A stretch of DNA of 64,000 nt from a virus (Duplodnaviria > Heunggongvirae > Uroviricota > Caudoviricetes), in the IMG/VR virus record IMGVR_UViG_2718217789_000003; one strand, 5' to 3'. Each line of letters starts with the position of its first letter. Within the stretch, counting starts at the first letter, position 1. A program made the position numbers. Below, one piece after another: positions 21,001 to 24,000 of the stretch.

Positions 21001-24000
21001 AATTCTGGCTAAAGCTCTTGCCCATAAAGCAGATGAACTTCCGTTAATCATCGAACTGGTGAGTAAAGGAAAAAAATATGTCATCTGCCACGCCGATTAT
21101 CCTTGTGATAAATACGAGTTTGGAAAGCCAGTTGATCATCAGCAGGTAATCTGGAACCGCGAACGAATCAGCAACTCACAAGACGGGATCGTGAAAGAAA
21201 TCAAAGGCGCGGACACGTTCATCTTTGGTCATACGCAAGCAGTGAAACCACTCAAATTTGCCAACCAGATGTATATCGATACCGGCGCAGTGTTCTGCGG
21301 AAATCTCACATTGATTCAGGTACAGGGAGAAGGCGCGTGGGCATAAGAGAACTAAACCTCACCAAAGAACAGCATGAGTGGCTGAATGGCTGGCTTGAAC
21401 TGTGGGGCGCATGGGTTTATTCAGGTCGTCTGGAAAAGCGCATGAGCAGCGTAATAGCTAAATTCATGGAGAGCGTGGAGCCGGGAAGAGTTATGACAAG
21501 GCCAATGTGTAATGATGATGATGGAATGTTGATTTCTCAGGTCGTCGATTCCGTCATGTACATTGACAAGAAAGCCTTTGGCATCCTCCTCAGCTACTAC
21601 GCCCACGGCTCTTCCAAGCACGCCATTGCATCTTACTATCATAGCGTCGCAAGACCTCGCAAGATGTTATGCCGGGGCGGCGGGCGCATTCAAAAACCAT
21701 CGCTAGCAACCTGCCGACGGGAAGTTGACGAAATCCTCAATGCCTCGTTGTTTATGATTTACCCGATTCTGGATAGTGCGTTTAAAAACCGGAAACGTGT
21801 AGAGAAAATTAAGCATGTAGCATAGAACGTGTTGACATCGTTGAGCAAATGAGCAACACTATTCGCATAAGCTGCCGTTAGTGACTCTTAAGTTGCAACG
21901 GTGGCTTTTTTTATTTGGGTCAATCGTATAAAGGTCATTAGAGCCTGTAACTGTTTTTCGTCCATAAATTAACCTTCATTTGATGCTGGATTGAACATAT
22001 CAAAATCAGGCAATTACACAAATCTATGTACAGGCTCTTTGTGCCTGACGTTAAAAGATTTTTTACAAGAATAATTTTGAATCAGTGAATTTGTGAACTC
22101 TTGCAACATTGATTTCGTAACGTTATTATCCTACGCTCGGCCCTTTAGCTCAGTGGTGAGAGCGAGCGACTCATAATCGCCAGGTCGCTGGTTCAAATCC
22201 AGCAAGGGCCACCAACCGCCATTAGCTCATCGGGATAGAGCGTCAGCCTTCGAAGCTGGTTGCGCGAGGTTCGAGTCCCCGGTGGTGGTCCATTATCGGT
22301 ATTCTGCGTTGTTAGCTCAGCAGGACAGAGCAATTGCCTTCTAAGCAATCGGTCACTGGTTCGAATCCAGTACAACGCGCCACACTTATTTTCCCTGGCT
22401 CGCTTTTGCGGGCCTTTTTTATATCTGCGCCGGGTCTGGTGCTGATTACTTCAGCCAAAAGGAACACCTTGTATATGAAGTGTATATTATTTAAATGGGT
22501 ACTGTGCCTGTTACTGGGCTTTTCTTCGGTATCCTATTCCCGGGAATTTACGATAGACTTTTCGACTCAACAAAGTTATGTATCTTCGTTAAATAGTATA
22601 CGGACAGAGATATCGACCCCTCTTGAACATATATCTCAGGGGACCACATCGGTGTCTGTTATTAACCACACCCCACCGGGCAGTTATTTTGCTGTGGATA
22701 TACGAGGGCTTGATGTCTATCAGGCGCGTTTTGACCATCTTCGTCTGATTATTGAGCAAAATAATTTATATGTGGCCGGGTTCGTTAATACGGCAACAAA
22801 TACTTTCTACCGTTTTTCAGATTTTACACATATATCAGTGCCCGGTGTGACAACGGTTTCCATGACAACGGACAGCAGTTATACCACTCTGCAACGTGTC
22901 GCAGCGCTGGAACGTTCCGGAATGCAAATCAGTCGTCACTCACTGGTTTCATCATATCTGGCGTTAATGGAGTTCAGTGGTAATACAATGACCAGAGATG
23001 CATCCAGAGCAGTTCTGCGTTTTGTCACTGTCACAGCAGAAGCCTTACGCTTCAGGCAGATACAGAGAGAATTTCGTCAGGCACTGTCTGAAACTGCTCC
23101 TGTGTATACGATGACGCCGGGAGACGTGGACCTCACTCTGAACTGGGGGCGAATCAGCAATGTGCTTCCGGAGTATCGGGGAGAGGATGGTGTCAGAGTG
23201 GGGAGAATATCCTTTAATAATATATCGGCGATACTGGGCACTGTGGCCGTTATACTGAATTGTCATCATCAGGGGGCGCGTTCTGTTCGCGCTGTGAATG
23301 AAGATAGTCAACCAGAATGTCAGATAACTGGCGACAGGCCCGTTATAAAAATAAACAATACATTATGGGAAAGTAATACAGCTGCAGCGTTTCTGAACAG
23401 AAAGTCACAGTTTTTATATACAACGGGTAAATAAAGGAGTTAAGTATGAAGAAGATGTTTATGGCGGTTTTATTTGCATTAGTTTCTGTTAATGCAATGG
23501 CGGCGGATTGCGCTAAAGGTAAAATTGAGTTTTCCAAGTATAATGAGAATGATACATTCACAGTAAAAGTGGCCGGAAAAGAGTACTGGACCAGTCGCTG
23601 GAATCTGCAACCGTTACTGCAAAGTGCTCAGTTGACAGGAATGACTGTCACAATCAAATCCAGTACCTGTGAATCAGGCTCCGGATTTGCTGAAGTGCAG
23701 TTTAATAATGACTGAGGCATAACCTGATTCGTGGTATGTGGGTAACAAGTGTAATCTGTGTCACAATTCAGTCAGTTGACAGTTGCCTGTCAGACTGAGC
23801 ATTCGTTAAAAAAATTCGCATGGTGAATCCCCCTGTGCGGAGGGGCGACTGGTGTATAAGGTGTCATCTCTGACGACAACCTGGAGCGAGATACGCGGGT
23901 TCAGGGACACCGGACTGAACTCACCGGGAGGCACCCGGCACCATGTACATGATGATACAGATACGCAGTGTCAGCCCCTCTCCGGAGGGGCTTTTTATCT

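Follow-up and report, generated by a model that had tools for sequence, protein, structure and literature searches.

In a 64,000-nt stretch of phage DNA (Caudoviricetes; IMG/VR record IMGVR_UViG_2718217789_000003; the whole stretch is called the window here), three tRNA genes precede the Shiga toxin (Stx) genes stx2A and stx2B, and the middle one, argN, raises the question of whether a tRNA with the anticodon UCG and a cloverleaf containing several weak pairs still decodes arginine codons. An earlier interpretation made without database searches (the sequence-only reading) described this gene as either a phage-specific decoder or a degenerate gene. We conclude that argN is probably a real, weakly selected accessory tRNA-Arg(UCG), the copy in the window being a borderline mosaic. 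The identification as a tRNA-Arg stands, whereas the weak pairs turn out to be weak evidence of decay, because recombination and an old family-wide A.C pair explain them. What we add to the existing annotation is the origin of the weak pairs, a measurement of weak constraint on the gene, and its family context.

ARAGORN finds exactly three tRNA genes in the whole window, all on the plus strand, and a search with the Rfam tRNA model (RF00005; gathering score 29 bits) also recovers the cluster with anticodons CAU, UCG and UCU that had been folded by hand:

22139-22214, plus strand: ileZ, anticodon CAU at 22172-22174, Ile2-type, CCA encoded (ARAGORN; Rfam 72.5 bits).
22216-22292, plus strand: argN, anticodon UCG at 22250-22252, mosaic allele, CCA encoded (ARAGORN, as tRNA-Arg; Rfam 43.0 bits).
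22306-22382, plus strand: argO, anticodon UCU at 22340-22342, G73, CCA encoded (ARAGORN; Rfam 70.1 bits).

The E-value of argN is 6.5e-07 in a 5-kb Rfam search and 8.3e-06 for the whole window. The trio is the ileZ-argN-argO tRNA operon already described from Stx2 phages, and the UCG gene is not new: the three anticodons lie in this order between Q and stx2A, and the genes are homologous to annotated ones. The 321-nt cluster region is 100% identical to Stx2c phage 2851, to Stx2a_F349 and to several Stx2 prophages of O157:H7; it shares 89.9% identity with 933W, which has the same trio in the same order, and with Min27. On identical DNA, the phage 2851 record lists tRNA-Ile, tRNA-Arg 'codon recognized: CGA' and tRNA-Arg 'AGA'; the Min27 and Stx2a_F349 records give the names ileZ, argN and argO. 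The suggestion that the CAU gene is ileZ agrees both with these names and with the PGAP annotation of identical DNA as tRNA-Ile; the gene is a lysidine-dependent tRNA-Ile2 on an Ile2-type rather than a Met body, and ARAGORN labels it 'Met' because anticodon letters alone are read. Likewise, the UCU gene, taken from the start for the familiar arginine tRNA of Stx phages, is argO. In E. coli O157:H7 TR01, whose sequence is 100% identical, PGAP calls tRNA-Ile, tRNA-Arg and tRNA-Arg with no pseudogene flag; neither this annotation nor ARAGORN, which reads UCG, gives the pseudogene call or alternative anticodon that would have overturned the identification. Gene order (ant, roi, ninG, phosphatase, Q at 21337-21825, the tRNAs, stx2A at 22475-23434 and stx2B at 23446-23715) is as in phage 2851, and the host element is a phage 2851/1717-type Stx2c prophage. 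Of 5426 complete E. coli genomes, 3061 have a cluster of this type, with 7589 occurrences in all, and the argN allele of the window occurs at 99% identity or more in 176 records, within the O157:H7 Stx2c prophage lineage. To our knowledge, the tRNA-Arg set of E. coli K-12 comprises ACG, CCG, UCU and CCU, with no UCG; the gene is thus unusual in its anticodon, as had been supposed, and in public records it is already annotated. Our literature searches for ileZ, argN and argO, for the tRNA genes of 933W and for rare codons returned no relevant paper, the word matches being noise; general statements on Stx2 phage tRNAs are available (PMC7946995).

The argN cloverleaf contains the weak positions reported by the sequence-only reading, namely a non-pairing A51xC63 in the T stem (22267/22279) and two G-U pairs in the acceptor stem, G3.U70 (22218/22286) and U7.G66 (22222/22282). 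It also has features that had gone unmentioned: a third G.U pair, U27.G43, in the anticodon stem (22243/22259), a C1-G72 pair and a U73 discriminator (22289). Nonetheless, the match to RF00005 passes the threshold and is full-length (model positions 1-71), the universal bases are all kept (U8, A14, G18, G19, A21, U33, purine 37, G53-C61, T54, U55, C56 and A58), and the anticodon loop is the canonical 7 nt, C32 U33 UCG A37 A38. With a score above threshold, universal bases intact and one non-Watson-Crick pair, argN does not classify as a pseudogene. E. coli arginyl-tRNA synthetase (ArgRS) identifies its substrates by A20 of the D loop, by C35 and by a G or U at position 36; argN keeps A20 (22235), C35 (22251) and G36 (22252). 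Because the universal positions and these three nucleotides are intact, argN is most likely transcribed, cut by RNase P and matured to a tRNA-shaped RNA. That it would still be charged with arginine and usefully decode we regard as an evenly balanced proposition. Energies were compared as cloverleaf-constrained folds, and here argN (-20.1 kcal/mol) comes near the conserved argO (-22.0), which counts in its favour. Unconstrained minimum-energy folding was dropped as a test of tRNA quality, since even the well-conserved ileZ gives no cloverleaf in silico.

Comparison with other occupants of the same position, slot 2, gives the weak pairs a different meaning. Alignment shows the argN allele of the window to be a chimera, in which an Arg-type 5' part is followed by a T arm and 3' acceptor strand of the PPompW type. 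From an Arg-type allele, L022, it differs nowhere in the 5' acceptor strand, the D loop or the anticodon arm. The match to the PPompW-type element is likewise exact in the T arm (CGAGG-TTCGAGT-CCCCG), in the 3' acceptor strand (GGTGGTGG) and in two spacers, the 1-nt one that follows ileZ and the one downstream. Pair 7-66 covaries in the wider family, being C-G in 43 distinct members and U-A in 39, and the U.G of the window is the single hybrid; since this pair is where the two slot-2 types are joined, it marks a recombination junction and not decay. G3.U70 came in with the PPompW-type strand and, among 85 distinct family members, is unique to the window allele, occurring elsewhere only in the PPompW type. 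By contrast, A51xC63 is present in 30 of the 85 distinct members, from Escherichia, Pseudescherichia, Citrobacter, Cedecea, Yokenella and others, and is, judged by this distribution, an old family trait rather than a fresh lesion.

There is a demand-side rationale for all three tRNAs, because their cognate codons are enriched 2.6- to 7.6-fold in the prophage. Codons were counted with one greedy open reading frame (ORF) method in the prophage part of the window and in 50 kb of K-12 core chromosome (frequencies per 1000 codons):

CGA: prophage 6.9, K-12 core 2.65, odds ratio 2.6.
CGG: prophage 12.9, K-12 core 3.6, odds ratio 3.6.
AGA: prophage 7.4, K-12 core 1.5, odds ratio 5.0.
AGG: prophage 6.2, K-12 core 0.8, odds ratio 7.6.
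ATA: prophage 10.5, K-12 core 2.4, odds ratio 4.3.

In E. coli itself, CGA is decoded by inosine-34 of tRNA-Arg(ICG), which pairs with it inefficiently, and a tRNA with U34 would be a Watson-Crick reader of this codon. We propose that argN would serve CGA in this way and CGG by wobble, with ileZ reading AUA and argO reading AGA and AGG; the host uses all of these codons rarely, and the prophage is enriched in them. Codon supply is the standard explanation for such tRNAs.

The trio also appears able to form an autonomous transcription unit, because it is bracketed by its own predicted promoter and terminator. The elements predicted around it are as follows:

21869-21913, plus strand: hairpin followed by U7, a pR'/tR'-type terminator after the Q stop at 21825 (-20.2 kcal/mol, z -2.8).
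22101-22129, plus strand: sigma70-like promoter, TTGCAA-17 nt-TATTAT, from a consensus scan, ending 9 nt before the 5' end of ileZ.
22397-22424, plus strand: terminator-like hairpin GGCUCGC-UUUU-GCGGGCC with a T run, between argO and stx2A (-13.8 kcal/mol, z -4.1).

Among 119 related IMG/VR clusters, which were anchored only on exact matches to the 3' end of ileZ and the 5' end of argO, the promoter hexamers hold their position in otherwise divergent upstream sequences, and the terminator hairpin is kept, with loop variation, in most. A short pR'/tR'-type leader lies about 225 nt upstream of the tRNAs (window 21826-21913, plus strand), and this putative leader contains a TTGACA directly 3' of the Q stop. 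We infer from the organisation of lambdoid phages that the tRNAs may also lie within the Q-antiterminated late transcript; we likewise infer expression timing, RNase P processing and charging. The trio's own promoter could transcribe it in the lysogen, and after induction the trio would also be read through on the late transcript, so that tRNA supply would be expected to rise with late-gene and toxin expression.

A considerable body of evidence weighs against argN as a selected arginine decoder. In the gene itself, U73 stands where a purine discriminator (A73 or G73) would be expected, as in argO (G73); U73 and C1-G72 are atypical for E. coli tRNA-Arg, and G3.U70 is a major identity pair of alanyl-tRNA synthetase (AlaRS). 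The argN score of 43.0 bits is 12-15 bits below those of the best alleles of the slot (54.8 for the 933W-like allele and 58.4 for L009) and next to that of L019 (42.9). Its constrained cloverleaf is 11 kcal/mol weaker than that of the best allele (-31.3 kcal/mol) and lies 6.4 kcal/mol above its own minimum-energy fold. In the copy of the PPompW lineage, the source of its 3' half, the D stem is broken and the score stays under 29 bits. With regard to demand, stx2A has 15 ATA and 6 AGA codons and only 2 CGA codons, and for this reason ileZ and argO outweigh argN and matter more for Shiga toxin expression. A literature search found no data on argN expression or charging. Across the 119 clusters, nucleotide diversity (pi) is lowest in ileZ (0.002), followed by argO (0.053), the middle slot (0.185), the spacer (0.199) and the flanks (0.28-0.36); the slot evolves like spacer, varying about 40-90 times faster than ileZ, and even within the UCG class pi is 0.081, as against 0.046 for argO. 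ARAGORN calls UCG in 79 clusters, no tRNA in 34, Lys-UUU in three, UCU in one, an undetermined tRNA in one and only ileZ in one. A non-decoding element fills the slot in about 30% of the sampled clusters. No compensatory change was found among the 37 distinct 77-nt variants of the UCG class, in which 96% of cells are paired and 4% unpaired, the same as in shuffles. In addition, loss of A58 or an A6xA67, C1xA72 or C2xA71 mismatch is seen in common Arg-type alleles.

Other copies of the slot have gone further: several sister alleles have lost A58, T54 or G19, the PPompW, long-arm and deletion forms score under the Rfam threshold, and sister copies in other prophages do classify as tRNA pseudogenes. 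Decoding by the slot is evidently dispensable in many prophages, and selection on decoding in it is clearly weak; no other part of this operon, which is very widespread, is under so little constraint as slot 2. Within the slot, variation is lowest in the acceptor strands, and the neighbouring spacers do vary. In argO, one compensatory T-stem swap (CACTGG/CCAGTA to CAGTGG/CCACTA) occurs in eight clusters. Separately, argO variants in seven clusters have a 5-nt 3' extension, CCACACCA, and in four IMG/VR clusters the 3' half of argO is swapped for unrelated sequence.

We considered whether the 34 copies with no call are decayed argN genes, and rejected this, since most are a separate 80-81 nt long-arm type, labelled tRNA-OTHER by PGAP; this type also occurs alone in Escherichia species, so that these copies are replacements rather than products of point-mutation decay. 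In the Stx2e prophage of E. coli cq9, an 81-nt long-arm element lies between ileZ and argO, with no argN (L126, 1284-1364); Stx phages therefore differ in the occupant of the slot. The family extends well beyond them. When one genome per species was scanned for the slot-2 5' motif, about 45 of the 53 loci recovered held a family member, in many genera of Enterobacteriaceae, and most loci have a tRNA-like element that shares its acceptor stem, D arm and T arm with argN and has a conserved anticodon stem, RCAAC/GTTGT. These X-type elements have highly variable loops of 5-6 nt, with 24 loops in 64 elements when an IMG/VR scan is added, and one identical 68-nt body bears up to seven different loops. 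They stand in ileZ-X-Thr(UGU)-Gly(UCC) arrays of lambdoid prophages, downstream of a Q gene and in the same slot (for example L253 1474-1547, L248 7700-7773 on the minus strand and L283 3305-3377, among loci L246-L338), and related ileZ-X-Thr arrays generally have spacers of 1-2 nt. Where 600 nt of flanking sequence have diverged by 3-14%, the X-type body shows one difference or none. Over 29 arrays, conservation is 0.970 for the body, 0.948 for ileZ, 0.976 for Gly and 0.989 for Thr; because the search pattern fixed about 40 of the roughly 74 nt, the value for the body is in part predetermined. We claim only body conservation; a loop 'hypermutation' rate taken from the closest pairs was dropped, being biased because the pairs were picked for differing loops. 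A Lys-like type with the loop CCUUUAA, which has C33 and not U33, scores 44.4 bits; at least 120 viral contigs in IMG/VR have it, and Thr(UGU) and Gly(UCC) usually follow (for example L125 1278-1354 and L002 1617-1692, and others among L128-L205). Rfam has no separate family for these other slot-2 types, which match the tRNA model weakly at most, and PGAP labels them 'tRNA-Lys' or 'tRNA-OTHER'. Compensatory changes are seen family-wide at five of 21 pairs (7-66, 27-43, 30-40, 51-63 and 52-62), suggesting that the cloverleaf has been under selection. The only other anticodon on an Arg-type body is UCU (L025, and L251 from Serratia), in which U34 and C35 are kept; because C35 is kept, this alternative fits ArgRS identity. 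The idea that the slot-2 loop is an antisense specificity loop, as in the RNase P-processed C4 RNA of P1 and CI RNA of P4, was rejected as unsupported: in 25 loci we found no loop complement at a consistent position, loops of 5-6 nt giving little power.

How far do these observations favour something other than a decoder? One explanation, which we consider rather unlikely though less so than the others discussed here, is that argN is a non-decoding or decaying tRNA-shaped element, kept as an RNase P cleavage signal or not yet deleted. The spacer-like rate of the slot, the lack of covariation within the UCG class and the 34 clusters without a callable tRNA would all be expected of a remnant, as would the low Rfam score of argN and the origin of its 3' half in a lineage with a broken copy. 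Set against these are the canonical 7-nt loop, A20 and the complete set of universal D- and T-loop bases in argN, the enrichment of CGA and CGG in the prophage and the unflagged PGAP annotation. As to cleavage, with only 1 nt between the two genes, a cut at the 5' end of argN would free the 3' end of ileZ too; the 1-2 nt spacers usual in ileZ-X-Thr arrays fit such a role, as do the low variability of the acceptor strands and the perfect 7-bp acceptor stem with UCCA that is retained by 32 of 36 copies outside the UCG class and the Lys-like type (35 parsed). A cleavage signal leaves the conserved anticodon stem of the wider family unexplained, however, and processing would work just as well with the slot cleanly removed. 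A far less probable explanation is that argN is expressed with mixed identity and is a substrate of AlaRS, which would place some alanine at CGA and CGG. Hou and Schimmel (1988) and McClain and Foss (1988) are said to have found that G3.U70 transfers alanine identity to other tRNAs, and argN has this near-unique pair. Its C1-G72, C2-G71 and U73 differ, however, from the G1-C72, G2-C71 and A73 of tRNA-Ala, which should lower the efficiency of AlaRS, and the ArgRS determinants A20 and C35 would compete. Any toxicity must be small, given the success of the O157:H7 Stx2c prophage lineage that carries this allele.

The conserved body and changing loop invite a further alternative, that the slot-2 RNA acts in counter-defence as a nuclease-resistant replacement or decoy for anticodon-arm tRNases of competing elements, such as P2 Old, PARIS AriB and colicin D-type toxins, the loop changes reflecting an arms race; we regard this as highly improbable. 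P2 Old inactivates several tRNAs, including those for Arg and Lys, and a phage tRNA-Thr(UGU) rescues; the substrate features of Old are a paired CNG motif and A37 (PMC12445682). PARIS AriB cuts tRNAs Lys(UUU), Thr(UGU) and Asn(GUU), and tRNAs of T5 rescue (PMC12409363); the first two are the main targets reported for AriB, and Thr(UGU) is the one reported for Old. For relatives of argN in the slot, counter-defence does have support: the Lys(UUU)-like slot-2 element followed by Thr(UGU) downstream of Q matches the targeted specificities, as do the Asn and Thr tRNAs of SfI, Sf6 and p21, the Lys-like and X-type stems (CAAC/GUUG) lack the CNG of Old through a compensatory change from G30-C40 to A30-U40, and the loop varies within a conserved body. 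The window argN, by contrast, keeps the paired CNG (C28-A29-G30 with C40-U41-G42; 22244-22246 and 22256-22258) and A37, the host has no UCG tRNA for it to replace, and many Arg-type alleles lack universal bases that a working replacement would need. More generally, a near-invariant body with a free loop (UCG or UCU, UUU with C33, and at least 24 loops of 5-6 nt) would suggest a role for the shape that is independent of decoding. It is unlikely, though somewhat less so than counter-defence by argN, that the UCG tRNA is one state of a prophage family of tRNA-shaped slot-2 RNAs with such a role, for which a decoy or resistant substitute against P2- or PARIS-type anticodon-arm nucleases and RNase P punctuation are candidates. 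Codon supply by argN would then be secondary or vestigial, and a role of this kind, if true, would be relevant to the question why tRNA arrays lie beside the late genes of temperate phages, toxin-converting ones among them. For argN itself, a weakly selected tRNA-Arg(UCG) carried as a mosaic allele remains the reading that we prefer.

Other elements in the window were matched to known RNA families. Directly 3' of stx2B is a full-length match to the STnc100 small RNA family (158.5 bits; 23790-24001, plus strand); STnc100 also lies beside slot-2 clusters elsewhere, in two of which a match to AgvB (anti-GcvB) adjoins (L022 and L012). Matches to isrK (74.7 bits), C4 antisense RNA (66.7 bits) and sRNA-Xcc1 (79.3 bits) at 17344-17529 and 18474-18557 (plus strand) lie upstream of an antirepressor-like ORF (18596-19276), an arrangement resembling the immI-type RNA control of ant in P1. 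A Lambda cIII thermoregulator element scores 88.5 bits at 8455-8513 (minus strand). An ALIL pseudoknot, a frameshift signal of IS3-family transposases (121.5 bits; 1154-1270, minus strand), falls within ORFs at 338-1551 (minus strand) and indicates that an insertion sequence lies close to the window's left end.

Among known systems, the operon of the 933W type is closest, sharing the position between Q and stx2A and the three anticodons in the same order. Its argN differs from that of the window at about eight positions: the 933W-type gene has an all-Watson-Crick acceptor stem, C27-G43, G51.U63 and 54.8 bits, whereas that of the window has three G.U pairs, A51xC63 and 43.0 bits, and the spacer after ileZ is 9 nt in the 933W type and 1 nt in the window. 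The place of the tRNAs just downstream of Q is that seen in Sf6, ST64T, p21 and SfI, and SfI, Sf6 and p21 carry tRNAs for Asn and Thr (PMC3636060). The tRNAs that rescue from nucleases (T5 tRNA-Lys from PARIS, and phage tRNA-Thr(UGU) from P2 Old) are phage-encoded with an altered anticodon arm, and the Lys-like and X-type relatives, both without the CNG motif of Old, resemble them; the window argN differs in keeping the CNG pair and A37 and in having an anticodon without a host counterpart. With the rest of the slot-2 family, argN shares the acceptor stem CCGCCAY/RTGGCGG, the D arm, the T arm, CCA, the place after ileZ and A51xC63, whereas the canonical anticodon loop of 7 nt, with U33 and A37, is confined to the Arg type, as are a D loop of 9 nt and a variable loop of 5 nt. 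Lastly, the enriched cognate codons fit the codon-compensation model of Bailly-Bechet et al. (2007), as far as that model is described where it is cited (PMC7946995; PMC3636060), from which argN departs in being far less conserved than both of its neighbours and in adding an anticodon that the host is missing instead of duplicating a host isoacceptor.

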